From positions 4,937,151-4,961,150 of the forward strand of contig NC_016584.1 in NCBI RefSeq assembly GCF_000235605.1: a stretch of 24,000 bases of DNA, in the 5' to 3' direction. This DNA comes from Desulfosporosinus orientis DSM 765 (GTDB lineage: Bacteria; Bacillota; Desulfitobacteriia; Desulfitobacteriales; Desulfitobacteriaceae). Position 1 is the stretch's first letter; every line of letters starts with the position of its first letter. The notes beneath the pieces are model-generated. The model was not told the DNA's origin. It was given only the letters and a program-made list of their open reading frames with translations, and made no database searches. The translations under genes were made by a program, and so were the position numbers. Shown here piece by piece: positions 1 through 23,879 of this stretch.

Positions 1-712
1 CTTTCTGAGAGGTTCCTTAAAATTATATCGTTATAAGCTGAAAGCTCATTCCTTTTTGCTCTATTCACTCATCGCTGCTCAGCTTTTAGCTTTGCTCTTT
101 TCTTTGGGGGGAACCAGTCATATGGCCTCAAGTAATGGGGAGGTGTCCGTCACTTTAAACATGTATTCCGCCAGTCTGGTCATTGCCTTCACCCTTTTTT
201 GGATTTTCTTTGTCAGTTATCAGCTGCCAACCAGCCGATACAAAAAACTTGAACGTCCTCTTGTTGTCAACAGCCTTTCCGGAAGTGTTTCTGACATAGG
301 CTTTTTGCTGACGGCTTGTGTCTTTGGGGGCATAACGTCATCACTCTTTGGTATCATTCTCCGAATCTTTGTGTTTGTGCGCTCCAATCCGGCCCAAATA
401 CTCCATGATCATTTTTTCTTAACCTTAGGGGATCTCTTGATTGGAATGGCTGCAGGAATTATGTACATGGTCGTAATCTCCGCAATTGGCTATTTAATGG
501 GCATGCTTGTCAGGATAAGCATGGCTTTTATCCTTATTATACCAGCAATACTCTTTGGGCTGATAAGAGTGTATACCAATTCAATGCAGCATTTTCTTGA
601 ATATTTTACCGCCGAAAGTTCATTGCCCTTATTCATCCTCAAAATAATCGCTGCCACCATTATTGTCTATGGAGCAAGTATTTTACTCTCAGATAGAAAG
701 GAGCTCGCCTAA
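1..712 (+). CDS. polytopic integral membrane protein, ABC-2-type-permease-like; 5' end probably outside the window
   Basis: The ORF-track ORF 56..712 starts at a TTG inside a hydrophobic helix. The same frame (codons at 2,5,8...) has no stop back to the window edge (FLRGSLKLYRYKLKAHSF...), so the CDS probably begins upstream. About six hydrophobic helices. The stop overlaps the next start (TAATG at 710..714). Family call rests on topology and composition only. Confidence 0.5.
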   Translation, partial: FLRGSLKLYRYKLKAHSFLLYSLIAAQLLALLFSLGGTSHMASSNGEVSVTLNMYSASLVIAFTLFWIFFVSYQLPTSRYKKLERPLVVNSLSGSVSDIGFLLTACVFGGITSSLFGIILRIFVFVRSNPAQILHDHFFLTLGDLLIGMAAGIMYMVVISAIGYLMGMLVRISMAFILIIPAILFGLIRVYTNSMQHFLEYFTAESSLPLFILKIIAATIIVYGASILLSDRKELA

Positions 713-1434
713 TGAATGCGGTTACGTTTTCCCTGGCCATTCTCCTTGCCGGACTGGTCATTGTTTTCATCATCGCCAAGCTAGGGTCCAAGGTTATTAA
801 GCTCTTATCCTGGAAAATCTGTGCCCTTACAGCAGGGGTATATATAGGCTTATTGATCTTGTCTTATCCACTTCTCTGCCTCTTGCCGGACAATGACTTT
901 ATTAAATCTGCCCAGCAGCGGGATGAAACTGTCGCAGCAACGCAAAGTCTGTTAAATGCTCTTTATCATGAGCCTCCTATTCTTAATGAAGAGACAATAG
1001 CTCACAGTAAAGGAGTCTTTAAAAACAGCAGCCGCTCCTTCCCGTTTTCTTCCCACCAAATATCCCTCAACATCCAACAAGGCCCCGGTAATCATCACAT
1101 TTTCATCAAGAAGAAAGAAACCTCTGACGGTATCATTGATGTATCAACTTATGTCACTGCTCATTATATCGGCAATGTTGACTTTTCCAAGCAAGTCTCT
1201 CCACCAACCATCATACTTAAAGATAATATGATGCATTTAATTTTTCCAAATCTCCAAACTATGAACTATCAACAGATAAACTATGATTTTACTCTCAGTC
1301 AATTTAAAGCCGCCGGCGATAATGGCAGTACTATGAGGTCTCACTACGGCGAACAACTTGTTTATATACGGGTCCCTAAAAATATTGAACTCAACATCCC
1401 TAAGGATCAGCCATTGATTCATGAGATTGACTAA
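712..1434 (+). CDS. membrane-anchored protein of unknown function (2 N-terminal TM helices plus a ~170-aa extracytoplasmic domain)
   Basis: 240-aa ORF translationally coupled to the upstream permease-like gene (TAATG). It has two N-terminal hydrophobic helices and then a polar domain. No family recognised. Confidence 0.6.
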   Translation: MNAVTFSLAILLAGLVIVFIIAKLGSKVIKLLSWKICALTAGVYIGLLILSYPLLCLLPDNDFIKSAQQRDETVAATQSLLNALYHEPPILNEETIAHSKGVFKNSSRSFPFSSHQISLNIQQGPGNHHIFIKKKETSDGIIDVSTYVTAHYIGNVDFSKQVSPPTIILKDNMMHLIFPNLQTMNYQQINYDFTLSQFKAAGDNGSTMRSHYGEQLVYIRVPKNIELNIPKDQPLIHEID

Positions 1435-2908: not shown

Positions 2909-4102
2909 CTAACCGAGGAGGCGGGCAATCTCGGCAACGAGATTCTTGGCAACCTCCAGTTTGCTCATTTGAGGAAAATCTATTCTTCTTCCATCAGGAA
3001 AGAGAAAACTGACAATATTCGTCATGCTCCCGAAACCTGCACCGGGTTTAGTGACATCATTGGCCACCAGGAGATTGACATTCTTTCTCTGCATCTTTTC
3101 CTGGGCATAAGCTAAAAGATTTTCGGTTTCAGCTGCAAACCCAATTAGAACCTGGGAGGTCTTCCGGCGTCCCAGTTCAGCCAAAATATCAGGATTAGGG
3201 ACCAACTCAATGGTTCGGTTAGCTCCGTCTTTTTTAATTTTCTGCTCCGCCTGTGAGGCCGGGCGATAATCAGCCACGGCCGCCGCCTTCACCACAACAT
3301 CCAGTTTATTAAACTCAGCCAGGACGGCGTCATGCATTTCTAAAGCTGTTTGAACAGACACACGGGTAACACCCGGAGGTGTAGGCAGGTCTGTAGGCGC
3401 ACTGACCAGGATGGTTTCCGCACCTGCTTCCTGAAGGGCCTGGGCAATGGCAAAACCCATCCGCCCGGAGCTGCGGTTTCCTAAATAGCGCACGGGATCA
3501 AGAGGTTCCTGAGTTCCGCCGGCGGTTACAAGGGCACGCTTGCCCTTTAGACAAGGGGACTCCGCAAAAAATTGAACGACAGCTTCCACAATTTCTGCCG
3601 CTTCGCTCATTCGTCCTACTCCATCTGTGCCGCAGGCTTGAAAACCAACGCCTGGACCAATGATTCGCATTCCTCGTTCTTTAAGCCGGTGCAAATTTCC
3701 TTGAGTTGCAGGATTCTGGTACATGGCCTGATTCATAGCCGGCGCCACAAAAATAGGTGCTCTGGTTGCCAGAAGCACCGTGGAAAGAAAATCATCCGCC
3801 AAACCTACGGCCATTTTGGCGATGATATTAGCTGTGGCAGGTGCAACCACCACAGCATCCACATGCTCAGCTAAAGCAATATGCTCCACATTCCATAGTT
3901 TGGGCTCCGCAAACATATCCACATGCACTGGATTTGTGGATAAACTTCGCAGTGTGAGGGGGGTAATAAATTCCGTTGCCGATTTTGTCATGGCAACATG
4001 AACATCGACCTCTAACTTGCGCAAACGACTGACAACCTCAGCAATTTTGTAAGCAGCAATTCCACCTGTAACCCCTATGAGGACCTTTTTCCCTGCCAGC
4101 AT
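2909..4102 (-). CDS. coaBC: bifunctional phosphopantothenoylcysteine decarboxylase / phosphopantothenate-cysteine ligase
   Basis: 397 aa. N-terminal flavoprotein domain (GVTGGIAAYK) and C-terminal CoaB domain (GNRSSGRMG, AAAVADYRP). Conserved position after rpoZ, with a TAATG overlap. Confidence 0.95.
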   Translation of the reverse strand: MLAGKKVLIGVTGGIAAYKIAEVVSRLRKLEVDVHVAMTKSATEFITPLTLRSLSTNPVHVDMFAEPKLWNVEHIALAEHVDAVVVAPATANIIAKMAVGLADDFLSTVLLATRAPIFVAPAMNQAMYQNPATQGNLHRLKERGMRIIGPGVGFQACGTDGVGRMSEAAEIVEAVVQFFAESPCLKGKRALVTAGGTQEPLDPVRYLGNRSSGRMGFAIAQALQEAGAETILVSAPTDLPTPPGVTRVSVQTALEMHDAVLAEFNKLDVVVKAAAVADYRPASQAEQKIKKDGANRTIELVPNPDILAELGRRKTSQVLIGFAAETENLLAYAQEKMQRKNVNLLVANDVTKPGAGFGSMTNIVSFLFPDGRRIDFPQMSKLEVAKNLVAEIARLLG

Positions 4103-4308
4103 TACACGCGCTCTTCTGGATGACAGTTATAATGGATGTCTGAACGAGAGATTTCCTCCAGTGAAATGCTGACTGGTTTAACGCCTTTGGCCAAATCCTC
4201 GTGTTTTCCTTCTTCCATGATCATACGAGCACGTTTGGCAACTACGATCACTAAGGTGTATTTGCTGTCGACCTTGCTCATCAGAGTGTCGAGTGAAGGT
4301 TGTTTCAT
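4102..4308 (-). CDS. rpoZ: DNA-directed RNA polymerase subunit omega
   Basis: 68 aa with a Firmicute omega-like N-terminus (PSLDTLMSKVDSKYTLVIVVAKRAR). Classic gmk-rpoZ-coaBC synteny. 4-nt overlap with gmk. Confidence 0.9.
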   Translation of the reverse strand: MKQPSLDTLMSKVDSKYTLVIVVAKRARMIMEEGKHEDLAKGVKPVSISLEEISRSDIHYNCHPEERV

Positions 4309-4913
4309 ACAGATTCCCCCTTAAAAACAAACGGTTTTCGTTTAACACGGCATTTTTCTGCAATGAGAATACTTTTTAATTTATCGACAGCCACGGGAAC
4401 CTCATCATTGACCACGACATAATCGTATTCACTGACATATTCCAGCTCCTCTATGGCAGTGGCTAACCTTTTCTGAATCACTTCCTCCGTTTCCGTACCC
4501 CGCTTGTGAATTCTCTCAGAGAGTACATCCATTGAAGGCGGGACAATAAAAGTGAAAACTCCTTGAGGAAAGCACTTTTTAATTTGTAAAGCACCTTGAA
4601 TTTCTATCTCTAAAATGACATCCTGTCCTGCTTGGATAGCCTGTTCAACTGCGAAGCGCGGTGTTCCATAGTAATTATCACAGAACTTTGCCCATTCCAG
4701 CAGTTCATCTCTGTTAATCATGGCTTCAAATTCAGCCTTTTGTCGAAAAAAGTAATGAATTCCATCCACTTCACCAGGACGAGAAGATCTTGTTGTCATC
4801 GAGACGGAATATTTTAAGTCAGGCATCTGGCGCAGCAATTCTTGGCAAAGCGTCCCTTTGCCTGCTCCGGAAGGGCCCGACAGCACTATCAATAATCCAT
4901 GACTTTTTTCCAC
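4305..4913 (-). CDS. gmk: guanylate kinase
   Basis: 202 aa. P-loop GPSGAGKGT, a TTR..RPGE.DG..Y.F substrate motif, and synteny. Confidence 0.95.
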   Translation of the reverse strand: MEKSHGLLIVLSGPSGAGKGTLCQELLRQMPDLKYSVSMTTRSSRPGEVDGIHYFFRQKAEFEAMINRDELLEWAKFCDNYYGTPRFAVEQAIQAGQDVILEIEIQGALQIKKCFPQGVFTFIVPPSMDVLSERIHKRGTETEEVIQKRLATAIEELEYVSEYDYVVVNDEVPVAVDKLKSILIAEKCRVKRKPFVFKGESV

Positions 4914-6173: not shown

Positions 6174-6209
6174 AAAAATTGCAGCAGGTAATAACCTGCT
6201 GCAATTTTA
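6174..6209 (-). terminator. rho-independent terminator of the 8399->6287 operon
   Basis: Perfect 13-bp stem AAATTGCAGCAGG (6176..6188) / CCTGCTGCAATTT (6195..6207) with a 6-nt loop. On the minus strand it is followed by TTTTTC. It lies 80 nt downstream of the stop at 6287. Confidence 0.65.
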
Positions 6210-6286: not shown

Positions 6287-7099
6287 TTAACATGTTTTAG
6301 TATTAAGATGTGGTTTTTTCCGATTATCCAGGAATATGAACAGGAAAGCAATGGCTGAACCCACCAGCAAAGCGATTAAAACCGACATATAGCCATAAAA
6401 GGGGCCATCATATATTGCCATGTCGTTTAACCATTTGACGATACCGATGGTCTCGACATCAAAGGTCTGGTCACTTGTTCCGATTACCTGCCCGTCTTTA
6501 ATAAAATAAACCGTTATATTACATTTTTCCTGAGGAATATTTGCAGGAAGCTCAAAACTGGTATTAAACTTACCATTATTAATTTGGACTCCGCTCTCGT
6601 TAATTCCATACAGTCCGCTTTCGCTGAATAAACCAACCATGGAATTCACAAATTCTTGTGCTTCAGATTTTTCTAATGTAAGAGAACCTGCATCACTATG
6701 CTTTCTGACTTCCGCCATTTGATAAACTGCCGAATAGTCTTTATCTATACCCAATTCCGCCTGCAAATCTTGTGGAAGGTCCGAAAGAGACTGGGAAGAA
6801 AGGATCCGGTACAGTTTAGGAACTTTAGTTACCGAGGTGCTTTCGACATTCATCCAAAATAAACTTACTTTTCCCTTTTTATTTAAATCTAAAATGGCAT
6901 CGTTAGGAGAGCTGACTTTGATATAAACTTGAGCATTGTCCGGTACGCTGCCGGAAATATCCAAGGCAGCGCCTTTAAAATTCAGTCCGACATTAACCTT
7001 ATCCGGTGAAACTGTAAGCTGATTCTCTGCTGCCATTCCCTGACCGGCAAAGGTCAATAAGAAAAGCATGCTTAGCAAGATTACTGCCAGCCTTCTCAT
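6287..7099 (-). CDS. exported, C-terminally membrane-anchored protein resembling TIGR02186 / PF09608 (Alph_Pro_TM) family, function unknown
   Basis: 270 aa. Signal peptide (MRRLAVILLSMLFLLTFAGQGMA|AE), a ~215-aa polar domain and a single C-terminal TM helix (YGYMSVLIALLVGSAIAFLFIFL). Motif blocks LFWMNVE and FELPANIP....ITVYFIKDG.V match my recollection of the family pattern. TAATG coupling to the TauE-like gene. Confidence 0.8.
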   Translation of the reverse strand: MRRLAVILLSMLFLLTFAGQGMAAENQLTVSPDKVNVGLNFKGAALDISGSVPDNAQVYIKVSSPNDAILDLNKKGKVSLFWMNVESTSVTKVPKLYRILSSQSLSDLPQDLQAELGIDKDYSAVYQMAEVRKHSDAGSLTLEKSEAQEFVNSMVGLFSESGLYGINESGVQINNGKFNTSFELPANIPQEKCNITVYFIKDGQVIGTSDQTFDVETIGIVKWLNDMAIYDGPFYGYMSVLIALLVGSAIAFLFIFLDNRKKPHLNTKTC

Positions 7100-8019
7100 T
7101 AATGGCCACCCCCTAGGGAAATTAATGAAGCTGGAGGAAGAACTAAATCTACCAACATTTTAAGCATAACGGCTAAAACAATCACGGAAAAAATAACCCT
7201 TAACTGTTCTGCAGGAAGCCTTTTGCCAAGCCTTGCCCCGAATTGAGCTCCAATAGAGGAACCAATTAATAAGACAATTGCCAAGACAACATCAACAGTA
7301 TGATTTAAAGAACTTTGGGCCATTGTCACGTTGATAGCTGTAAAAATAATCACAAAAACACTCGTGCCAACTGCCTTAATTGTTGGCATTCCCAATAAAT
7401 AAATCATGACCGGCAGCATAATAAATCCACCGCCAACGCCCATAAGCGCAGCAAGAATACCTATTAGTAAACCCAGCAAGAATAGAGAGATAACAGAACA
7501 ATGAATACCGGATACCTCAAAATGCATTTTAATAGGCAGCTTATTCATAAACTGCATTGCTTTATTTTCTTTAGGTGTTTCATCAATTTCTTTTGTTTTT
7601 TTCCTTAGAGAATTGATACTCTCGATAAACATAAAGGAGCCTACACATAGCAGCATCACTACATAAGTGGATTTTAGCACAAAGTCGAAGTTGCCAAGGG
7701 AGCGCAGAACTTTAACAAGAGCTGTCCCAAAACTGCCGCCCACTAAACTCCCGACGAGAATAATGAAGCCAAGTTTAAAGTCAACATTCTTATTGCGGCT
7801 ATGGGCAATGGTTCCGGAAACAGAAGCCGCCACAATTTGGTTCGTATCGGAAGCTACTGCTACAGCAGGCGGTATCCCCATCCACATCAAAAGGGGGGTT
7901 AATAAGAATCCTCCTCCCACTCCGAAAAGTCCGGACAGCAATCCAACCAAACCACCCATGCCTAGAATAGCAAATATCGAAATTGGCATTCTGGCAATAG
8001 GGAAGAAAATGTCCATCAT
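7099..8019 (-). CDS. TauE/SafE (DUF81) family anion permease
   Basis: 306 aa. Two 4-TM halves rich in G/L/V (GLLSGLFGVGGGFLLTPLL and AALMGVGGGFIMLPVMIYLLG repeats) are separated by a ~40-aa charged loop, which is typical TauE/SafE architecture. ATGATG/TGA overlap with the upstream gene. Confidence 0.9.
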   Translation of the reverse strand: MMDIFFPIARMPISIFAILGMGGLVGLLSGLFGVGGGFLLTPLLMWMGIPPAVAVASDTNQIVAASVSGTIAHSRNKNVDFKLGFIILVGSLVGGSFGTALVKVLRSLGNFDFVLKSTYVVMLLCVGSFMFIESINSLRKKTKEIDETPKENKAMQFMNKLPIKMHFEVSGIHCSVISLFLLGLLIGILAALMGVGGGFIMLPVMIYLLGMPTIKAVGTSVFVIIFTAINVTMAQSSLNHTVDVVLAIVLLIGSSIGAQFGARLGKRLPAEQLRVIFSVIVLAVMLKMLVDLVLPPASLISLGGGH

Positions 8020-8399
8020 TCTCCCCCCTTATATTGCAGGTACAGTGCTTCATATTTGGGAATCAGAGTTTTCGTATAAACTTTAATGCCAAATCTTTGT
8101 ACCCCTATGCCTAAGAGCATGGTTAATAACAATAATCCCGTTGAACCCCAGGTGAAATTATTGACTTGTGCATCTTCAGGGGTATAAACATTGCCTTGGG
8201 CATCTTGCCAGGAATATATTTCTTTAGTGTCTTGATTTTGACTAACGATAACATGTTTATTGGGATTGTAATAATGAGTAAACACTTCTGACCTAAGAAA
8301 ATTCAGGCCACCCCAGAAAAAAAGAACTGATAAAATTAACACTGCAAAACTTAATTTAACACTAAATTTCCCTAACTTTTTTTTGCTGATCTCTGTCAT
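8016..8399 (-). CDS. small 2-TM membrane protein, no recognised family
   Basis: 127 aa. Strong RBS (GGGGAGG 7 nt before the ATG at 8399). Two hydrophobic helices flank a ~50-aa polar loop. First gene of the translationally coupled three-gene operon. Confidence 0.75.
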   Translation of the reverse strand: MTEISKKKLGKFSVKLSFAVLILSVLFFWGGLNFLRSEVFTHYYNPNKHVIVSQNQDTKEIYSWQDAQGNVYTPEDAQVNNFTWGSTGLLLLTMLLGIGVQRFGIKVYTKTLIPKYEALYLQYKGGE

Positions 8400-8613: not shown

Positions 8614-8629
8614 AGCAAAATCAATGCCA
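8614..8629 (-). promoter_or_regulatory. sigma-54 (-24/-12) promoter of the 8399->6287 membrane operon
   Basis: The minus strand reads TGGCATTGATTTTGCT. The GG and GC doublets are spaced exactly as in the consensus TGGCAC-N5-TTGCW. It sits just downstream of the RR-gene terminator and ~215 nt upstream of the ATG at 8399. The neighbouring gene encodes a sigma-54 activator, and a near-identical copy lies at 12089..12104. Confidence 0.65.
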
Positions 8630-8664: not shown

Positions 8665-8704
8665 CAAAAACAAAACCGGCAACTCTTCAAGTTGCCGGTT
8701 TTGG
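8665..8704 (-). terminator. rho-independent terminator of the HK-RR operon
   Basis: Stem AAAACCGGCAAC (8672..8683) / GTTGCCGGTTTT (8691..8702). On the minus strand it is followed by TTTTGTTTTTG. It lies 45 nt downstream of the RR stop codon. Confidence 0.7.
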
Positions 8705-8722: not shown

Positions 8723-8743
8723 AATGAGCATAATTTGCTCATT
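8723..8743. promoter_or_regulatory. inverted repeat AATGAGC-N7-GCTCATT, candidate enhancer (UAS) for the sigma-54 activator
   Basis: Perfect 7-bp arms centred ~105 bp upstream of the -24 GG of the 8614..8629 promoter, which is the usual UAS distance. It lies immediately after the RR stop, so it could also be a simple RNA hairpin. Confidence 0.3.
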
Positions 8744-8745
8744 TG

Positions 8746-10131
8746 CTACAAAAGATCATATTCTTTCATCTTTGCATAAAGGGATCGTCGATTTAAGCCC
8801 AAGGTATTGGCTGAATCTTGTCTATTCCAGTTGTGGTCTCTTAATGTTTTGACAATCACCTGTTTTTCCACCTCAGCCAGGATATCTTTAAGGGGCCGCT
8901 TTAGTCTTAGGGTTAGATTAAGTTCTGAGTCTGAGTTTTGAAAGGGTTGAGGATTTCCATCAAAAATACCAAGATCATCCGGCAAAATAACGGCCCCTCT
9001 GGCCATGACAACCGCTTGCTCACAGGTATTTTTTAATTCTCTTACATTACCTGGCCATGAGTAATTAAGCATGAGCTTTAATGCTTCTTTAGATATACTG
9101 GTAATTCTTTTGGCATGCTTTAAAGCAAATCGATTAATAAAGTAATTGGCTAAAGGGGTAATATCTTCTTTTCTCTCCTTGAGAGGGGGAAGCTTGATAT
9201 TAACAACGTTCAGTCGATAAAATAGATCCTCTCTGAATTTTCCTTCCTCAACTAACTTTTGTAACTCTTTATTAGTAGCTGCCAGAATGCGGATATCCAC
9301 CTTAATACTATTAATTCCTCCAACTCGTTCAAACTCCCGCTCCTGCAGCACACGGAGAAGTTTGGTTTGAGCCTGGTGGGTTAATTCTCCGATCTCATCA
9401 AGAAAAATTGTCCCACTGTGAGCAAGTTCAAATTTACCCAGTTTCTGAGTAATGGCTCCTGTGAAGGCTCCTTTTTCATGCCCAAACAATTCGCTTTCCA
9501 TCAGATTTTCCGGAATGGTGGCACAATTAATTTTTATATAGGGACAATGACTTCGTTTACTGTTTTTATGAATGGATTGGGCAACCACTTCTTTGCCTGT
9601 TCCGCTCTCACCTTGAATTAAGACGGTTATATCACTATCCGATATTCTGCCAATGGTTTTAGAAATCTCCTGCATGATTCTGGATTCCCCAATAAAGTTA
9701 TCCGATTGATTCAGATCATCTTCTAACTTTTCACGAAGGGTAGCAACCTCAGAGACAAGATTCTTCATCCTTACGGCTTTCTGAACGGACAAAATGAGTT
9801 CGTCCAGGTTGAGGGGTTTATTAAGGTAGTCATGAGCCCCTTCCTTCATAGCTTGTATAGCTATTTCAGTGGTACCAAAGGCAGTCATCAAAATGACAGG
9901 TACACTAACTCCAATATCTTTAATTCGTTCCATAACTTTGATGCCATCATCATCAGGAAGCTTAATATCTAAGAGAATAGTATCAGGATTAAAATTATCT
10001 AAAGCCTCCATTCCCTCTGCCGCCGTATAGGTCACATAAACTTCATACCCCGCACTTTCCAGAACATCACGCAGCAGTTCACAGACGCCCTCTTCATCGT
10101 CAATTACCAGAACTCTAGCCATTCTTGTCAC
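8746..10131 (-). CDS. sigma-54-dependent response regulator (NtrC/AtoC/ZraR class enhancer-binding protein)
   Basis: 461 aa. REC domain (VLVIDDE...LLDIKLPDDDG). AAA+ domain with Walker A GESGTGKE, ESELFGHEKGAFTGA (GAFTGA loop) and Walker B TIFLDEIGEL. C-terminal Fis-type HTH (ANTLGLNRRSLYAKMKEY). Confidence 0.95.
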   Translation of the reverse strand: MTRMARVLVIDDEEGVCELLRDVLESAGYEVYVTYTAAEGMEALDNFNPDTILLDIKLPDDDGIKVMERIKDIGVSVPVILMTAFGTTEIAIQAMKEGAHDYLNKPLNLDELILSVQKAVRMKNLVSEVATLREKLEDDLNQSDNFIGESRIMQEISKTIGRISDSDITVLIQGESGTGKEVVAQSIHKNSKRSHCPYIKINCATIPENLMESELFGHEKGAFTGAITQKLGKFELAHSGTIFLDEIGELTHQAQTKLLRVLQEREFERVGGINSIKVDIRILAATNKELQKLVEEGKFREDLFYRLNVVNIKLPPLKERKEDITPLANYFINRFALKHAKRITSISKEALKLMLNYSWPGNVRELKNTCEQAVVMARGAVILPDDLGIFDGNPQPFQNSDSELNLTLRLKRPLKDILAEVEKQVIVKTLRDHNWNRQDSANTLGLNRRSLYAKMKEYDLL

Positions 10132-11950
10132 CCCTCTCAGCTATTGGTAAATAGATTGTCATGATTGTACCTACATTAACAGTGCTTTCAACTTCATAGA
10201 AACCCTTATGAGCTTCGATAATTTCCCGGGCAATCGCCAAACCTAAACCGGTACCTTTTGATTTGGTCGTGAAAAATGGTTCAAAAACCTTTCCTAAATT
10301 TTCTTCTGAAATACCACAGCCGTTATCTTTAATGGACACTCCAACCATATTTTTTTCTTCGTCATAAAAGGTTGTTGTCTCTAATTTACCCTTTCCTTGG
10401 GTTGATTGAAAAGCATTATACATAATGTTTGAGAGAACTTTCTCAATCTGATGCTCATCCATGATCACATCCGGAAGTTCATCTTCATACTTCGCAGCAA
10501 ATTCTATCTTATCCCCATGGGCATCGCCTAAAAACTGAACCACTCTTCTTACCAGGCTGTTAATGGCACAGGGCTGCATCGTAGCCCGGGAAGGGCGGGC
10601 AAATTGTAATAATTCATCTGTGATCGTCGCCAAGCGGGTCATTTCCCTGTTCACGATGTTTAATGATTTTTGCGATGGGACATGTCCCTGGTTCCAGAAC
10701 TGCATATACCCGGTAATTGAGGTTAAAGGACTTCTAATTTCATGAGCAACTCCGGCAATAATCTTTCCTAATGATGCAAATCTCTCCTGCCGATTGATAT
10801 CTTCCCTCAAGCGAACCATTTCTGTGATATCGCGGAAGTGTAAGAGCGCCCCCACAAGGTCCTGACGTACATTTACCATTAGAGATGTGCTGATCAGCAA
10901 ATGGAGGTGACTGCCCGGCGAATCCTGGTAGAAAACCTGTATATCTTTTACAGGCTTATTTTGAAGAAGAGTATTCTTGACGCAATCGATAAAGGGACTA
11001 TCCTCCGGAAAAATATCCTGCATAGTTAATCCTAAATAATCCTTACTAAGATTGAGCATATGACAGGCAGCGTGATTGATGCTCACAAGCTTTTGTTCTT
11101 TATTAACCGTAATTATTCCGTCATCAATGCTGGTTAAGATTTCTTGGTTATAGTTTTGAACATCAATTAGCTTATTGTACATTTGGTTGATGGCATCCGT
11201 AATCTCCCCAAGTTCTCCCGGCGCCCTCGGGATAATATAGGTAGGATCATTGGATATTGTGGTCAGATTCCGCTTAACTTCATTAACACTCCCGGCAAAT
11301 TTTCGAACCAGACTGATTGTCCCGCCAAGAGCAAACAAAATCCCTAAAGTAATAATTCCATAAACAATTTGTTTCATATTATCAATCTTTTGAGATATGG
11401 GTTTAAAATCCGAACTAGCCCAGACAGCACCAATTGTTATACCGTCCCTAATAATGGGCCGATAGGCTTCCAGTTGTCCATTTTCGGTTATACCGCCAAA
11501 AACCTGAAAGACCATATTCTTAGTCTCAAGGGCATCCTCAAAATTATTCTTTCTTCGCTTGGAAAAGTTTTCTCGTAAATGAACATTATCTCCATCTAAA
11601 ATGACGTCATAATCTTTCCAGTAATATCCTAAATCCAAATTTGGGTATTCTCTCTTTGCTTCAACTATAATAGGTTGTAAGGATTTGTTGAGAGCCTTAG
11701 CTTGATCCCTTTGGGTCATATTCCCAGCCCCAATATCCTCAATCATTTTATTAAAGGTTCCGTTTAAATTTTCATCCAGATAGGTCATAGCCGTTTCCAT
11801 AGCCTTACGCTGATTATCAATCAGGCCCAGTTCAGTGGAATGTACCAGATAATAGAGATATCCCGCCAGCCCTATGGGTATCAACAACAGAAGAGCAATG
11901 ATTTTTAGCAAGTGATCAATGAATCCATCATGGACAATCCTTATCCTCAT
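10115..11950 (-). CDS. membrane sensor histidine kinase (extracytoplasmic Cache/PAS-like sensor, HAMP, PAS, HisKA, HATPase_c)
   Basis: 611 aa. TM1 (~res 15-35) and TM2 (~res 195-215) bracket a ~155-aa external domain, followed by a HAMP-like linker and a PAS domain (ILTSIDDGIITVN). H-box AHEIRSPL, N/G boxes (DNGCGI, GTGLGLAIA). 17-nt overlap with the RR gene. GGAGGAG RBS 6 nt before the ATG. Confidence 0.93.
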   Translation of the reverse strand: MRIRIVHDGFIDHLLKIIALLLLIPIGLAGYLYYLVHSTELGLIDNQRKAMETAMTYLDENLNGTFNKMIEDIGAGNMTQRDQAKALNKSLQPIIVEAKREYPNLDLGYYWKDYDVILDGDNVHLRENFSKRRKNNFEDALETKNMVFQVFGGITENGQLEAYRPIIRDGITIGAVWASSDFKPISQKIDNMKQIVYGIITLGILFALGGTISLVRKFAGSVNEVKRNLTTISNDPTYIIPRAPGELGEITDAINQMYNKLIDVQNYNQEILTSIDDGIITVNKEQKLVSINHAACHMLNLSKDYLGLTMQDIFPEDSPFIDCVKNTLLQNKPVKDIQVFYQDSPGSHLHLLISTSLMVNVRQDLVGALLHFRDITEMVRLREDINRQERFASLGKIIAGVAHEIRSPLTSITGYMQFWNQGHVPSQKSLNIVNREMTRLATITDELLQFARPSRATMQPCAINSLVRRVVQFLGDAHGDKIEFAAKYEDELPDVIMDEHQIEKVLSNIMYNAFQSTQGKGKLETTTFYDEEKNMVGVSIKDNGCGISEENLGKVFEPFFTTKSKGTGLGLAIAREIIEAHKGFYEVESTVNVGTIMTIYLPIAERGDKNG

Positions 11951-12018: not shown

Positions 12019-12088
12019 TTTTTTCACATTCTACGAGTAAATTTTGCCCATTTAAATTTCCTTTCTTGATTATAAAGCCCTTTACAGA

Positions 12089-12104
12089 TGGCATGGTTTT
12101 TGCT
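12089..12104 (+). promoter_or_regulatory. sigma-54 (-24/-12) promoter of the CBS-pair gene pair
   Basis: The plus strand reads TGGCATGGTTTTTGCT with consensus GG/GC spacing, ~52 nt upstream of the ATG at 12156. It is 17/20 identical to the promoter at 8611..8630 on the other side of the HK-RR genes. Confidence 0.65.
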
Positions 12105-12155: not shown

Positions 12156-12626
12156 ATGAAAATCACTCTTGGCCAAATCATGGTTCCTCTAGATGAATAC
12201 CCCATTGTTTCAGAAGAAGAGTCCCTTGAAAAGGCCATAGAGTTATTGACGGAAGAATTTAAGCAAAGGGATAACCGCTGGCATAATTTTGAAGCTGTAC
12301 TAACCACCAACTCTGAGGGCGAGATTACCGGAATGCTTACCCTGCGATTTGCCTTAGATGCTGTTCGGGAACTAAAATTCCCAAGTCTCCGTCATAGACT
12401 GGCAGAGCTCTTCGCTGAGGAGCCCGTAAAGAGAAGCCCGCTTCAGGTTAAAGACATCCTACATCCCTTGAAAAGCAGATTAATTGATATTTCTGTCGAG
12501 TTAGATGAAGCCATTGCTTTTCTTTTAAAGCATAATCTAAACTCCATTCTGGTTGCGAAAAACCAACAAATTGTCGGTGTCGTCCGAACCATGGATTTAT
12601 TCTGGTATATTGGCGATGTTTTATAA
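12156..12626 (+). CDS. stand-alone CBS-pair (Bateman domain) protein
   Basis: 156 aa with two CBS-like repeats (IMVPLDEYPIV...ITGMLT and VKDILHPL...IVGVVRTMDLF). RBS AAGAGG upstream. Confidence 0.85.
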   Translation: MKITLGQIMVPLDEYPIVSEEESLEKAIELLTEEFKQRDNRWHNFEAVLTTNSEGEITGMLTLRFALDAVRELKFPSLRHRLAELFAEEPVKRSPLQVKDILHPLKSRLIDISVELDEAIAFLLKHNLNSILVAKNQQIVGVVRTMDLFWYIGDVL

Positions 12627-12644: not shown

Positions 12645-13268
12645 ATGACTCCAACCTACTTATGTCACAACATCATGATACCTATAGATCATTTTCTGAC
12701 CATCAACCAATACGACTCAGTGCGTGAAGCCTTAAAGTTAATGAGAGAATCCTTTCATCAAGAGTCTGCCTGGCAAGGTCCTCAAGTCTTAATTGTTGTG
12801 GATAATCACCAAAAGCCTGTTGGACTTCTGACCCTGAAATGTTTGCTCAAATCCTCTCAGCTAAAGCAATTACAAGAAAGCACATACTTTAAGTCTGAAT
12901 GCGTCAGTTGGCATTATATTAATAAATGTCAAAAATCAGGAATTGCCGTCAGAGAACTCATGCGGCCGATTCACTGTTTCTTCTTTGATTATCATCATTT
13001 TGACATCATAACTGCTGCGGCGGTATTCACCCGCAACGGTATAAACTATATACCAGTTCTTAAGAATCATGAGCTGATTGGCATCATTAATAAATCCAAA
13101 CTTTTCTACGAATTACAGTTCTTAAATACCACCTCTCCCAAGAGCCTTAGGGCATTTGATTCACTGTCCAGAAATTTAAAGGACATAAAAAGCAGTATGT
13201 CTATGCTTTTTGCCGGTATCTTTCCGTCGGATATCAGAAAACTTGATAAGCGGCTGCCCAAGTTTTGA
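12645..13268 (+). CDS. stand-alone CBS-pair protein with a ~50-aa C-terminal extension (paralog of the upstream gene)
   Basis: 207 aa. CBS-like repeats (IMIPIDHFLTI...PVGLLT and VRELMRPI...LIGIINKSKLF) are colinear with the upstream protein. GGAGGG RBS 7 nt before the ATG. 18-nt spacer from the upstream gene. Confidence 0.8.
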   Translation: MTPTYLCHNIMIPIDHFLTINQYDSVREALKLMRESFHQESAWQGPQVLIVVDNHQKPVGLLTLKCLLKSSQLKQLQESTYFKSECVSWHYINKCQKSGIAVRELMRPIHCFFFDYHHFDIITAAAVFTRNGINYIPVLKNHELIGIINKSKLFYELQFLNTTSPKSLRAFDSLSRNLKDIKSSMSMLFAGIFPSDIRKLDKRLPKF

Positions 13269-19789: not shown

Positions 19790-21040
19790 TTATATCACCT
19801 TCCTCGGATCGGTTATTTTTCCATAGAGTGCAGAAGCTGCTGCAGTTGCTGGGCTGGCAAGATAGATTTCTCCATCGGGGCTACCTACGCGGCCTTGAAA
19901 ATTCCGATTAGCAGTTGTAAGGAGACGCTCACCAGGCCCAATTAGGCCAATGGTACCGCCAAAGCAGGCACTGCAGCCAGGGGTGGATACCATGGCGCCG
20001 CTTTCCATAAAAGTCCCGATCAGACCTCGTTCCATTGCCTCCATGTATACCGCGTTGCTGGCAGGTGTGACCAGCATCCGCACCTTTTCGGAGATCTTTT
20101 TCCCCCTCAGAATAGCCGCCGCCGTTTCAAGATCTTCTAACCTGCCATTGGTACAGGCACCCAGAAACACTTCATCTATGTCGAGCCCTTCAAAGTCGGA
20201 AAGGGATTTGACTTGATCCACGCTGTTGGGGTAGGCGATCTGGGGTTCCAAGTTTTCTACATTATAAGTTAATACCCGTTCATATGAAGCATCCTCATCG
20301 TCCTCAATTACCGGATAATACTCTCTTCCCAAATCCTTCATGAAGGCTTTTACCTTTTCATCAGGTTGCACATAGGCAAATTTTGCTCCTGCTTCAATGC
20401 CCATGTTGCAAAGGGTAACCCGCTGGGAAACGGTCAAATCCCGAATGGCCTCCCCTTCAAAAACCAAGGCCTTATAGGTAGCACCCTTAGCAGTGAGGTC
20501 ACCGATCATCTTCAGGACGAGATCCTTGGCGTAGACACCCTGGGGCCATTTTCCGCCGACACGGATCTTGATGGCGAGAGGCACCTTAATCCAGACCTTA
20601 CCCTCCAGCCAACCAACCGCCACATCCGTTGATCCCATTCCTGTGGAAAGGGCTCCAATGGCACCATAGGTACAGGTATGGGAATCGGCACCAATGATAA
20701 AATCACCAGGTTTGGCATGATGCTCGAGCATCAGCTGATGACATACCCCCACACCATCGTAAATGTATTTTAACTCCTGATCCCTCCCAAACTGCCGCAT
20801 CTTTTTGTGGGTTTCCGCTGCATCAACAGAACAACAAGGAGTATAATGATCCATAACCAAGACCACCTTTTCCCGATCAAAAACCCGTTCACCCTTTAAT
20901 TCTTTTTTGAATACATCAATCGATAGGGTGGTTGTAGCATCATTGGACATCACACAATCAAGCTTCACATCAACGATCTGTCCCGCTTTAACTGTTTCGA
21001 GACCTGCATGGGTAGCAATAATTTTTTCAATCGCGTTCAT
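19790..21040 (-). CDS. aconitase-superfamily hydro-lyase large subunit (LeuC/HacA type; 3-isopropylmalate-dehydratase-like)
   Basis: 416 aa. Motifs GADSHTCTYGA, Fe-S cysteines GACTNGR and PGCSACFG, and ANRNFQGR. RBS AGGGGGA 6 nt before the ATG. Confidence 0.9.
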   Translation of the reverse strand: MNAIEKIIATHAGLETVKAGQIVDVKLDCVMSNDATTTLSIDVFKKELKGERVFDREKVVLVMDHYTPCCSVDAAETHKKMRQFGRDQELKYIYDGVGVCHQLMLEHHAKPGDFIIGADSHTCTYGAIGALSTGMGSTDVAVGWLEGKVWIKVPLAIKIRVGGKWPQGVYAKDLVLKMIGDLTAKGATYKALVFEGEAIRDLTVSQRVTLCNMGIEAGAKFAYVQPDEKVKAFMKDLGREYYPVIEDDEDASYERVLTYNVENLEPQIAYPNSVDQVKSLSDFEGLDIDEVFLGACTNGRLEDLETAAAILRGKKISEKVRMLVTPASNAVYMEAMERGLIGTFMESGAMVSTPGCSACFGGTIGLIGPGERLLTTANRNFQGRVGSPDGEIYLASPATAAASALYGKITDPRKVI

Positions 21041-21135: not shown

Positions 21136-22029
21136 GTGTTGCATGCAGAACTCTATAAGATTTTCTATTTCACTTCTATGTGCCGGAGCATTTCTGAAGC
21201 TGCTGATAGGCTCTATATTAGCCAACCAGCAATCAGCAAATCTATTAAAAAGTTGGAAACCTTAACTGGGTGTACACTTTTTATCAGAAATTCTAAGGGT
21301 GTCACCCTTACGACAGAGGGGCAGATTCTCTATGATTATGTAAAAAGTGCCTTTGAAACCCTGAACAATGGAGAGATGATGCTTGAAAAGCTAAAAAAGA
21401 GAACCGAGGGCATTGTCAAAGTGGGCATAAGCAATACGCTTTGCAGATACTTCTTTTTACCCCATCTAGAGGCATTTCATTATCAGTACCCCGGTATACA
21501 CATTCAAATCATCAACCGGCCTTCACCGGATACCTTGAAACTTTTAGAGCAAGGGCAGCTTGATTTTGGCATTATCAGCATTCCCATGGACAAGGGAGAC
21601 CTGGAATATTTCGAGTTGATGACCATCCAGGACATCTTTGTGGCAGGCAGTAAGTATGACATCCCGGATTGTGCCCTCCCCCTTAAGAAACTTGGAAGTT
21701 ACCCACTCCTGATGATGGAAGCCGGGAATCTCTCTCGGATCCATATCGACGACTATTTTAAGGCCAATCATCTCAGCTTTACGCCAGAAATAGAGATCAG
21801 CAGTATGGATATCTTAATTGAATTTGCCAAAATTGGCTTGGGGTTTGCCTCGGTGATCAAAAGTTTTGTTACCGAGGAGCTAGCTCTTGGTATACTGAAG
21901 GAAGTTCCGGTCTCCCCTGCTATACCGCAACGCAAAATAGGTATTGCTCTGAAAAAGAATATTCCAGTTTCTCTGGCTTCCCAGTCCTTTATAGAGTATT
22001 TAAAAGGGACCAGGGTTTTGAGTCAGTAA
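21136..22029 (+). CDS. LysR-family transcriptional regulator
   Basis: 297 aa. N-terminal wHTH (SISEAADRLYISQPAISKSIKKLE) and a C-terminal substrate-binding fold of typical length. GTG start at 21136 with GGGGG 7 nt upstream. Divergent from the LeuCD-like operon. Confidence 0.9.
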   Translation: MLHAELYKIFYFTSMCRSISEAADRLYISQPAISKSIKKLETLTGCTLFIRNSKGVTLTTEGQILYDYVKSAFETLNNGEMMLEKLKKRTEGIVKVGISNTLCRYFFLPHLEAFHYQYPGIHIQIINRPSPDTLKLLEQGQLDFGIISIPMDKGDLEYFELMTIQDIFVAGSKYDIPDCALPLKKLGSYPLLMMEAGNLSRIHIDDYFKANHLSFTPEIEISSMDILIEFAKIGLGFASVIKSFVTEELALGILKEVPVSPAIPQRKIGIALKKNIPVSLASQSFIEYLKGTRVLSQ

Positions 22030-22357: not shown

Positions 22358-22375
22358 ATTTGAACATGTTCAAAT
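22358..22375. promoter_or_regulatory. 18-bp perfect palindrome ATTTGAACATGTTCAAAT, candidate operator / 5'-UTR hairpin of the PHP-protein gene
   Basis: Perfect dyad located between a candidate sigma-A promoter (TTTACC 22313..22318, 18-nt spacer, TACAAT 22337..22342) and the AGGAGG RBS (22383..22388). Confidence 0.4.
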
Positions 22376-22394
22376 GAAAAACAGGAGGTTTTCT

Positions 22395-23879
22395 ATGAAA
22401 ACTAAAACAAATCGCGTAAAAATCGCAACACTTGTTATGTCAATGTCTTTTCTATTAAGCACATTCAATTTACCAGCATTTGCGGCCAACATACAGCAGC
22501 CCACACATTATGAAAAAAGCTACACAATCGTCAGTCCTTATAAGGATGTAGACTGGAAAAATTACGGTCAATACAAAGCTGATTTCCATGCGCACTCAAC
22601 AAACTCCGATGGCGGTAATTTTACAAAAGATATGGTCGAAGACCACTACAAAAAAGGCTATGACATTCTTGCCATGACAGATCACAATTATCTCACAAAA
22701 AGTTGGGATACTGTTGCAAAAGGTGCGATTGATTCCGCGAGAGAGGCTGCAATCGTTAAGGGAGATGACCGCAGCGGCAAAGGTATGATTGATATTTACA
22801 ATACTGATGAGCAGTCGAAAACTGATCATATCAATTCTTTCTTTGCAGATTTCAATAACAGCACTGGTGCTACCATGGCAAGCACGATTGAAACCGTTGA
22901 AAAATTGGGTGGGATCACTCATATTAACCATCCGGGCAGATATACCGGCGGTGCGTCAGGCGGCGATGCTGGATTGGCTGCTTCAAACAATCCTACTACA
23001 ATTCAAAAGTATGTTGATCTTTTCACTAAGTACCCTTCCTGCATTGGAATGGAAATCATCAACAAGATCGATAACGAGTCCAGAAGCGACAGAATCCTTT
23101 GGGACAATATTCTGAAAGATATGATGCCCAATGGCCGCTTTGTCTGGGGTTTCTCAAACGATGATACACACAGCATTAACGCCACCGGGTATTCTTGGAA
23201 TGTAATGCTCATGCCTTCGCTTTCTCAAGATGCAACCAGAACAGCTATGGAAACCGGCGCATTTTATGCGGTGAGCCGTGTCTCCCGTCGTGACAACATC
23301 AATGCAAAATTGCCTAATGGCAATGACATGCCCGGCAGTGGTACACCCGATACTTTATATTTGCTCAATCAGACTAGTCCCAGCATCTCGAATATCGTTG
23401 TGAATCAGAAGGATAATTCGATAACGATTACCGGACAGGATTACAATACCATTGAGTGGGTCGCAGATGGCGATGTAATCGCAACCGGCACAACACTTGA
23501 TCTGAACGATCATGAGAATGAGATTAACACTTATGTACGCGCACAGCTAAAAAGCAGCACCGGTATCGCTTTCACTCAGCCTTTCGGCGTTAAAGAAAAT
23601 AAGTCTGCCGCCATTTCTATCACAAGCATTGATAACGGCAACAATCAGGCAAATGTGAATTTTGATATCCATTCCGCCAACGGCAAGGGATACGTTGTGT
23701 GTCTCTCTGATAGCGGAAATGAGGGAACCTATGCCCCGTACAGCGATGTGAACTACGATTCCAAGGGAGCGCACATCAAAGGTTTAGAAAACAAGAAATA
23801 TTACGCATACGTTATGTACGTGAATGGTAACACTATTGCCGAGAAAAGTGAACCAGTATTGTTAAATCCCGGAAAATAA
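22395..23879 (+). CDS. secreted PHP-domain (polymerase/histidinol-phosphatase family) metal-dependent phosphoesterase with a C-terminal beta-rich domain
   Basis: Start placed at the ATG at 22395 (AGGAGG 6 nt upstream). Signal peptide MKTKTNRVKIATLVMSMSFLLSTFNLPAFA|AN. PHP motifs DFHAHSTNSDG, ILAMTDHN, THINHPGR and FSNDDTH. The ~150-aa C-terminal region looks Ig/FN3-like. Confidence 0.85.
   Translation: MKTKTNRVKIATLVMSMSFLLSTFNLPAFAANIQQPTHYEKSYTIVSPYKDVDWKNYGQYKADFHAHSTNSDGGNFTKDMVEDHYKKGYDILAMTDHNYLTKSWDTVAKGAIDSAREAAIVKGDDRSGKGMIDIYNTDEQSKTDHINSFFADFNNSTGATMASTIETVEKLGGITHINHPGRYTGGASGGDAGLAASNNPTTIQKYVDLFTKYPSCIGMEIINKIDNESRSDRILWDNILKDMMPNGRFVWGFSNDDTHSINATGYSWNVMLMPSLSQDATRTAMETGAFYAVSRVSRRDNINAKLPNGNDMPGSGTPDTLYLLNQTSPSISNIVVNQKDNSITITGQDYNTIEWVADGDVIATGTTLDLNDHENEINTYVRAQLKSSTGIAFTQPFGVKENKSAAISITSIDNGNNQANVNFDIHSANGKGYVVCLSDSGNEGTYAPYSDVNYDSKGAHIKGLENKKYYAYVMYVNGNTIAEKSEPVLLNPGK

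Follow-up and report, generated by a model that had tools for sequence, protein, structure and literature searches.

A TauE/SafE permease subfamily paired with PF09608 proteins across bacterial phyla, and its sigma-54-linked three-gene operon in Desulfosporosinus orientis

Few bacterial transporters are as numerous, or as poorly understood, as the TSUP (TauE/SafE) permeases. To our knowledge, their characterised members have been described as single-component permeases. The family is associated with small sulfur-containing anions, and sulfate reducers carry between 4 and 11 copies each, with 8 paralogues in Desulfosporosinus orientis (PMC5840216). A TauE gene is also part of the 'nitrate cluster' of Desulfovibrio (DVU0251-DVU0245/Dde_0597-0605), where it encodes a 320-residue protein and is accompanied by an adjacent small hypothetical gene, a PEP-utilising, PPDK-like gene, and a gene for a CheY-like regulator (PMC4001038). 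Mutants in this cluster are nitrate-resistant, the G20 mutants grow mildly worse on thiosulfate, and the authors propose a leaky thiosulfate importer; the 195-residue DVU0250 is annotated only as a conserved hypothetical protein (PMC4001038). Here we describe a 24,000-nucleotide stretch of the D. orientis DSM 765 chromosome (NC_016584.1, positions 4,937,151 to 4,961,150; hereafter the window) that contains a three-gene operon. Gene 1 encodes a small protein with two transmembrane segments (2-TM protein), gene 2 a TauE/SafE permease, and gene 3 an exported protein of the PF09608 (Alph_Pro_TM) family. Coordinates of all features are collected in Table 1.

Genes 2 and 3 represent a gene pair that recurs across phyla. 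A TauE gene lies directly upstream in all 21 loci found via PF09608, comprising the window, 7 Firmicute loci, 7 alphaproteobacterial loci, and 6 loci from metagenomes or metagenome-assembled genomes (MAGs). The alphaproteobacterial loci come from a tblastn search of plasmids and chromids that returned 13 PF09608 records, seven of which were examined. In 6 of these 7 plasmid loci, the end of the TauE gene meets or overlaps the start of PF09608; the two records in which both genes are annotated have this arrangement, as do the six distant metagenome and MAG members (22–28% identity). In one plasmid locus (L007, Neorhizobium galegae VafX2, 3973..4870) the TauE gene upstream of PF09608 is unannotated and split in two frames, an apparent frameshift or pseudogene.

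For the reverse test, we scanned metagenomes with an alignment of PF09608-linked TauE proteins and took the 80 best loci, whose TauE proteins share 43–57% identity with gene 2. These loci were chosen by TauE subfamily alone, and PF09608 follows directly downstream on the same strand in 75 of the 77 with enough downstream sequence. One of the two exceptions, L049, has two tandem copies of the TauE subfamily gene and is truncated where its contig stops. When both directions are pooled, 96 of 98 informative loci show the pair, always in the same gene order. The spacing between the two genes, measured at 75 loci, is -4 nucleotides in 19, -1 in 23, and 0 to 6 in 31, so that it is at most 6 nucleotides in 73 of the 75, and the genes overlap by 1 or 4 nucleotides at 42 of the 75 junctions. 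Since spacings of -4 to 6 nucleotides are found in nearly all loci, tight translational coupling is a property of the family. The two proteins also diverge together, with a correlation of r = 0.82 between their pairwise distances over 73 pairs that was matched in none of 999 Mantel permutations. With 8 TSUP paralogues in the D. orientis genome (PMC5840216), the two genes would be neighbours by chance at a rate of about 1e-3 per gene. Lower-scoring TauE paralogues were sought as a negative control, and none was present in the fetched loci. An initial annotation of the window, made from the DNA letters alone, had expected both a PF09608 match for gene 3 and an adjacency with TauE that is enriched across genomes; the adjacency is enriched from either side, and the match, given below, is far above threshold.

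Gene 2 matches PF01925 (TauE) over profile positions 2–237 of 237 (E=2.1e-52; 178.6 bits, gathering threshold (GA) 32.6). It carries GVGGGF repeats at residues 32–37 and 193–198, and hydropathy, the only basis for this estimate, gives the duplicated transmembrane layout of 4+4 hydrophobic blocks around a K/R-rich central loop. Its identity to TauE proteins linked to PF09608 in other phyla is 41–57%. Members of this subfamily have a central loop motif (LP..-F..SG) in common, and they often end in GGGH. A search of PDB sequences with TauE found nothing.

The gene 3 protein matches PF09608 over profile positions 5–225 of 227 (E=2.1e-49; 168.8 bits, GA 24.5). Its NCBIfam match to TIGR02186.1 reaches 74.3 bits, which is below the equivalog cutoff of 255.25, and its nearest named relatives are from Desulfosporosinus rather than of the alphaproteobacterial origin stated in the family's name. 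Sequence blocks of the protein had been likened in the initial annotation to TIGR02186 and Alph_Pro_TM together. The Pfam assignment stands and the equivalog assignment does not, and judged by these scores the protein is only distantly related to the alphaproteobacterial TIGR02186 equivalog and does not belong to it. The family had also been described there as restricted to Alphaproteobacteria, which is incorrect, as cluster look-ups name one Peptococcaceae MAG, one Desulfotomaculales MAG, and Nitrospirota MAGs. Altogether PF09608 comprises approximately 1,889 clusters at 50% identity among 1.84 billion representatives, with lengths that are all about 250–280 residues, and a protein search with a diverse PF09608 alignment contributed at least 15 further distant members. 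Firmicute homologues already carry the NCBI name 'TIGR02186 family protein', so the occurrence of PF09608 in a Gram-positive genome is not itself new.

Gene 3 has the layout of its family, with about 250–280 residues, an N-terminal signal sequence, and a single C-terminal transmembrane segment. The AlphaFold model (predicted local distance difference test, pLDDT, 94) and hydropathy agree on this point and bear out the signal peptide, external domain, and single C-terminal anchor first read from the letters. In the model, the signal-peptide helix is followed by an immunoglobulin (Ig)-like beta-sandwich at residues 29–101, a mixed alpha/beta lobe at approximately 110–217, an amphipathic helix at 219–230, and a transmembrane helix at 232–260. 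No PDB structure matched at E<1e-3 in a Foldseek search, and a profile search of PDB sequences returned nothing credible. Plant ribosome-inactivating proteins gave the best PDB sequence match (E=0.006), which was judged to be chance, and they were rejected as relatives.

Conservation in PF09608 is concentrated in and near the membrane. An alignment of 88 diverse members has 13 invariant or nearly invariant positions (G43, G50, W82, P94, Y164, P185, G219, A228, Y235, G236, A243, G247 and F254). The last seven of these, from G219 onwards, lie in the juxtamembrane helix and transmembrane anchor, where the conserved residues form a small-residue face. We read this face as a possible site of membrane-embedded interaction with TauE. 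No conserved metal-ligand or catalytic-type residue was found in the ectodomain in the same alignment.

The first position of the operon is more variable. Gene 1 matches no Pfam or NCBIfam family, and its AlphaFold model (pLDDT 77), which consists of a helix at residues 3–39, a three-strand mini-sheet at 50–72, and a helix at 77–125, found nothing in a Foldseek search of the PDB. It has 19 homologues, all of the Desulfosporosinus/Desulfocucumis type, occurs only in the group of Desulfosporosinus, Desulfocucumis, and Desulfurispora, and keeps its position in the operon in 8 loci. The best conserved part is an extracytoplasmic loop of about 45 residues (38–85) with H42, H49, D57, E60, W64 and D66 invariant. 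The extra small subunit proposed in the initial annotation is thus a genuine conserved gene, limited to one Firmicute clade. Other sigma-54-linked clades have a soluble, weakly Usp-like protein of 140–175 residues in first position; this open reading frame 5' of TauE was considered as a homologue of the 2-TM protein and rejected. In the alphaproteobacterial plasmid loci, the first position holds no gene. Because the third component varies by lineage, the conserved core is the TauE-PF09608 pair.

In the window, the three genes are physically linked by the overlaps that the initial annotation had reported, and both junctions can be read in the sequence. The gene 1/gene 2 junction (8019..8014, minus strand) is ATGATG enclosing the TGA stop of gene 1, and the gene 2/gene 3 junction (7101..7097) is TAATG. 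A purine-rich, Shine-Dalgarno-like run can be read off the sequence 5' of every start in the operon. The operon is closed by an intrinsic terminator, a second terminator ends the upstream regulator gene, and promoter and terminators together delimit exactly these three genes. This arrangement may allow stoichiometric co-production of the three membrane proteins.

Sigma-54 control of the operon, also proposed in the initial annotation, is well supported. The operon promoter reads TGGCAT-N5-TTGCT, with the GG of the -24 element and the GC of the -12 element at canonical spacing, and is one of only two exact matches to the sigma-54 promoter consensus in the 24 kb window. The second diverges from the kinase gene and precedes two genes for CBS-pair proteins. 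Each is accompanied by a GRGCA-N5-TGCYC palindrome, a putative binding site for an NtrC-type activator. In every Firmicute locus, such a palindrome precedes the operon promoter by about 100–130 bp. The palindrome is strongly over-represented in the window, with 6 strand-matches against 0.25 expected. The adjoining activator gene encodes an enhancer-binding protein by its PF00158 (Sigma54_activat) match of 242.6 bits and the GAFTGA motif read in its translation. The 3' end of the kinase gene overlaps the activator start by 17 nucleotides (10115..10131), which suggests that kinase and activator are also translationally coupled, and the two transmembrane segments of the kinase enclose an extracytoplasmic region of about 170 residues. 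No rpoN gene is present inside the window.

The same module occurs in related Firmicutes. A genome-contig scan with a close PF09608 alignment, from which the derived peptide patterns are clade-specific, gave loci L001–L006 (Desulfosporosinus spp., Desulfocucumis palustris, a Peptococcaceae MAG, and a Bacillota MAG), to which L014 (Desulfurispora thermophila) is added. All seven genes (the operon, activator, kinase, and two CBS-pair genes) have the same arrangement in L001–L006 and L014, including the activator gene adjoining the operon. Both promoters and their palindromes are kept at orthologous positions in L001–L006, the second promoter being exact in L001–L005 and a one-mismatch form in L006. 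L014 has a variant operon promoter, TGGTAC-N5-TTGCT, and no sigma-54 promoter match on the CBS-gene side. Because the flanking genes differ in L004–L006 and L014, the seven genes must move together, which favours a dedicated regulon that has two outputs. In other non-alphaproteobacterial lineages, too, the TauE-PF09608 pair is found with sigma-54 activators and promoters.

Table 1. Features of the operon and its regulatory module in the 24,000-nucleotide window (positions are those of the window).
Feature	Position	Strand	Basis or remark
Gene 1, 127-residue 2-TM protein, no known family	8016..8399	-	List of open reading frames
Gene 2, 306-residue TauE/SafE (TSUP) permease ending GGGH	7099..8019	-	PF01925
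Gene 3, 270-residue PF09608 (Alph_Pro_TM) protein ending ...KTC	6287..7099	-	PF09608
Intrinsic terminator closing the operon	6175..6208	-	15-bp stem and U-run, -23.2 kcal/mol, z=-7.2
Terminator between regulator gene and sigma-54 promoter, ending the regulator gene	8671..8703	-	15-pair stem and T-run
Sigma-54 (-24/-12) promoter of the three-gene operon, TGGCATTGATTTTGCT	8614..8629	-	Exact TGGCAY-N5-TTGCW match
Upstream palindrome, putative NtrC-type activator binding site, GAGCAAATTATGCTC	8726..8740	.	Consensus GRGCA-N5-TGCYC
NtrC-type response regulator/sigma-54 activator (REC, AAA+ with GAFTGA, Fis-type helix-turn-helix)	8746..10131	-	
Sensor histidine kinase (two transmembrane segments, PAS, HisKA, HATPase)	10115..11950	-	
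Second palindrome copy, GAGTAAATTTTGCCC	12035..12049	.	Upstream of second sigma-54 promoter
Second sigma-54 promoter, divergent from kinase gene, TGGCATGGTTTTTGCT	12089..12104	+	Exact match
156-residue CBS-pair protein, putative second output of the regulon	12156..12626	+	Kept in all Firmicute loci
207-residue CBS-pair protein	12645..13268	+	Kept in all Firmicute loci

Two weaker regulatory matches were recorded in the window. A one-mismatch palindrome copy, GAGCAAAATTTGCCT, lies at 20374..20388 inside an aconitase-family gene (19790..21040, minus strand); no sigma-54 promoter match was found near it, and it may be chance. A one-mismatch sigma-54-like match, TGGCAGTAATCTTGCT, lies at 7074..7089 on the minus strand, about 10 nucleotides past the ATG of the PF09608 gene, and is probably chance, as it is absent from the corresponding position in related loci. 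The outer flanks of the module are housekeeping genes, with yicC, gmk, coaBC, and metK on one side and dapF, a P-type ATPase gene, and an NFACT-family gene on the other. Elsewhere in the window, two plus-strand open reading frames of 218 and 240 residues (56..712 and 712..1434) share a 1-nucleotide stop/start overlap and have no Pfam match at E<=1e-3. A 501-residue open reading frame (22374..23879, plus strand) has a sub-threshold PHP-domain match (22.2 bits against 26.4) and adjoins a gene for a LysR-type regulator (21136..22029).

We favour, with moderate confidence, the view that the operon encodes an inducible heteromeric TSUP secondary transporter with the PF09608 protein as a single-pass accessory subunit. 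The 8-TM TauE protein would form the translocation path. The PF09608 protein would be a bitopic partner whose small-residue C-terminal transmembrane helix packs on TauE, placing its two-lobed ectodomain of about 200 residues (Ig-like sandwich and alpha/beta lobe) over the outer face of the permease. The Firmicute-specific 2-TM protein may be a third subunit that contributes a small beta ectodomain. On the regulatory side, the kinase, with its extracytoplasmic sensor region and PAS domain, would phosphorylate the NtrC-type activator, which would bind the palindromes upstream of the two sigma-54 promoters and switch on both the transporter operon and the two cytoplasmic CBS-pair proteins, which are probably regulators. 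CBS and Usp-like proteins are typical small nucleotide-binding regulators, and their recurrence, CBS in the Firmicute module and Usp-like proteins in other loci, suggests cytoplasmic control of the transporter. By analogy with other TSUP members, a small anion is the most likely substrate, with sulfur oxyanions such as sulfite or thiosulfate as possible candidates.

Several observations weigh against this view of the operon. One locus of the reverse test, L094, is a true negative in which a member of the TauE subfamily has no adjoining PF09608 gene. The PF09608 protein evolves much faster than TauE, with a mean p-distance of 0.72 against 0.43, and its ectodomain has no binding-protein or enzyme fold recognisable by Foldseek against the PDB. 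With housekeeping genes on both flanks, no gene in the window ties the locus to sulfur metabolism, and the suggested substrate draws only on the reported cargo of a few distant TSUP members. We infer that TauE and PF09608 form a physical complex, and likewise what the ectodomain does, that the activator binds the palindromes, and how the proteins lie in the membrane. An alternative reading is a functional link without a complex, in which PF09608 would act on its own as a structural or enzymatic envelope protein exposed at the surface, co-expressed with a TauE protein that moves its substrate or product. Its large, fast-evolving ectodomain makes up most of the protein, the Foldseek similarities are limited to generic Ig-like and GM2-activator-like (beta-cup) partial overlaps with query-normalised TM-scores <0.3, and the clade-variable first gene of the operon suggests a loose module. 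We consider this reading unlikely, as it is the transmembrane anchor with its Gly/Ala face, not the ectodomain, that is the best conserved part of PF09608; catalytic-type residues are not conserved; and family-wide 1–4-nucleotide overlaps with TauE together with correlated C-terminal tails are typical of subunits. There is also a very slight chance that adjacency and overlaps arose by accident, with an ordinary TauE paralogue sitting beside unrelated hypothetical genes and the small open reading frame being no gene. TauE paralogues are indeed numerous in sulfate reducers (PMC5840216), and short open reading frames that match no family are often spurious, but the near-universal pairing, the homologues, conserved loop, and kept position of gene 1, and the exact fit of promoter and terminators to these three genes all speak against an accident.

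The C-terminal tails mentioned above raise a further alternative, namely a role in transition-metal transport or sensing for the TauE/PF09608 complex, with flexible Gly-Gly-x-His/Cys termini on the cytoplasmic side as ligands and the loop histidines of the small protein contributing. Among 180 PF09608 proteins, 128 end in His, typically as GG[AGS]H, and in the 14 non-alphaproteobacterial loci first examined, every TauE partner has a GGGH terminus. The window protein and its closest relatives end in Cys instead (KTC, KAC, KEC), a swap that retains ligand chemistry; the codons concerned lie at 6287..6301 (PF09608) and 7099..7113 (TauE). The two tails are correlated, as 21 of 22 His-ending PF09608 proteins in 64 complete metagenome pairs have a His-ending TauE partner (Fisher p=2.8e-5, uncorrected for phylogeny). 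Both tails would be cytoplasmic in the 4+4 transmembrane model with a K/R-rich cytoplasmic central loop, which is drawn from hydropathy only. H42 and H49 are invariant in the gene 1 loop, and the best NCBIfam match of gene 2 is the TauE domain of the magnetosome protein MamO. This last match covers a generic TauE domain only, at 51.6 bits against a cutoff of 800. The tails are absent from the PF09608 proteins of all 7 alphaproteobacterial plasmid loci, from 5 of 6 of their TauE partners, and from many metagenome pairs, so they are not essential to the core function. Moreover, the PF09608 ectodomain has no His, Cys or Met that is kept throughout the family, and the regulator is a sigma-54 two-component system rather than a metal-sensing repressor. 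Metal transport or sensing by the complex is therefore improbable in our view. As a lead, the exchange of His for Cys suggests that the terminal residue has a ligand-binding or regulatory role.

A broader proposal may be entertained tentatively, and we regard it as rather doubtful in its entirety. The TauE subfamily and PF09608 could together be an undescribed, widespread class of multi-subunit secondary transporter, in which PF09608, with a fold not in the PDB, would gate or feed a TSUP permease from outside and the Gly-Gly-x-His/Cys termini of the two subunits would jointly make up a ligand or regulatory site in the cytoplasm. In anaerobes, Usp or CBS proteins would join this system in a stress regulon under sigma-54, which may be the same one whose loss gives nitrate resistance in Desulfovibrio. 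No paper in the searchable literature mentions PF09608, TIGR02186 or Alph_Pro_TM. As far as we could find, three features are undescribed: a near-obligate link, seen from either gene and in several phyla, between PF09608 and one TauE subfamily; the three-part form in Firmicutes, with a regulon made up of sigma-54 promoters, palindromes, and CBS proteins; and the correlation between the C-terminal His tails. The TauE-PF09608 system is a solid, testable conserved unknown, and it overturns nothing. A TauE subfamily that is nearly inseparable from an exported partner points to a heteromeric architecture for which the TSUP family is not known, and the pairing gives PF09608 a concrete, testable role. 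The conserved circuit of kinase, activator, palindrome, and promoter provides an experimental handle on the inducer and, through the inducer, on the substrate.

Among known systems, one close counterpart of the operon is the TSUP family (TC 2.A.102), which includes TauE of Cupriavidus necator, SafE, TsaS, and CysZ of Corynebacterium glutamicum. Gene 2 is likewise a full-length PF01925 protein, but, unlike the characterised members, its subfamily nearly always shares an operon with PF09608. The alphaproteobacterial TIGR02186/PF09608 and TauE loci contain the same Pfam family as gene 3, and those of Sphingomonas, Sinorhizobium, Neorhizobium, Tritonibacter, and Pseudorhodobacter have the same gene order and TauE overlap as the window. 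Their PF09608 proteins share only 22–28% identity with gene 3, and the plasmid loci have no 2-TM partner and no nearby homologue of the sigma-54 activator (-24/-12 promoters were not scanned there). The TRAP (DctPQM) and TTT (TctABC) transporters offer the same parts list, as they combine a large permease, a small membrane protein, and an extracytoplasmic protein in one operon under two-component control. This likeness is a resemblance only and not membership. There is no homology, with no Pfam match of the window operon to TRAP or TTT families; the PF09608 ectodomain is no Venus-flytrap binding protein, with no DctP or TctC binding-protein fold found by Foldseek; and the small subunit occurs in one clade only.

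The Desulfovibrio nitrate cluster resembles a set of PF09608 loci (L015–L020) in gene content and may be related to them. In L015, L017, L018 and L020, and in part in L019, the pair lies among genes for a Usp-like protein, an 862-residue PPDK_N/PEP-utilisers protein, a CheY-like regulator, and a sigma-54 two-component system, with further Usp and FGE-sulfatase genes and CitMHS/ArsB-type transporter genes as neighbours. A literature search found nothing on DVU0250-0252 beyond PMC4001038. Unlike the nitrate cluster, the window is without PPDK-like and CheY genes. If the link to the nitrate cluster is true, the TauE-PF09608 system would have a bearing on the nitrate control of souring by sulfate reducers.

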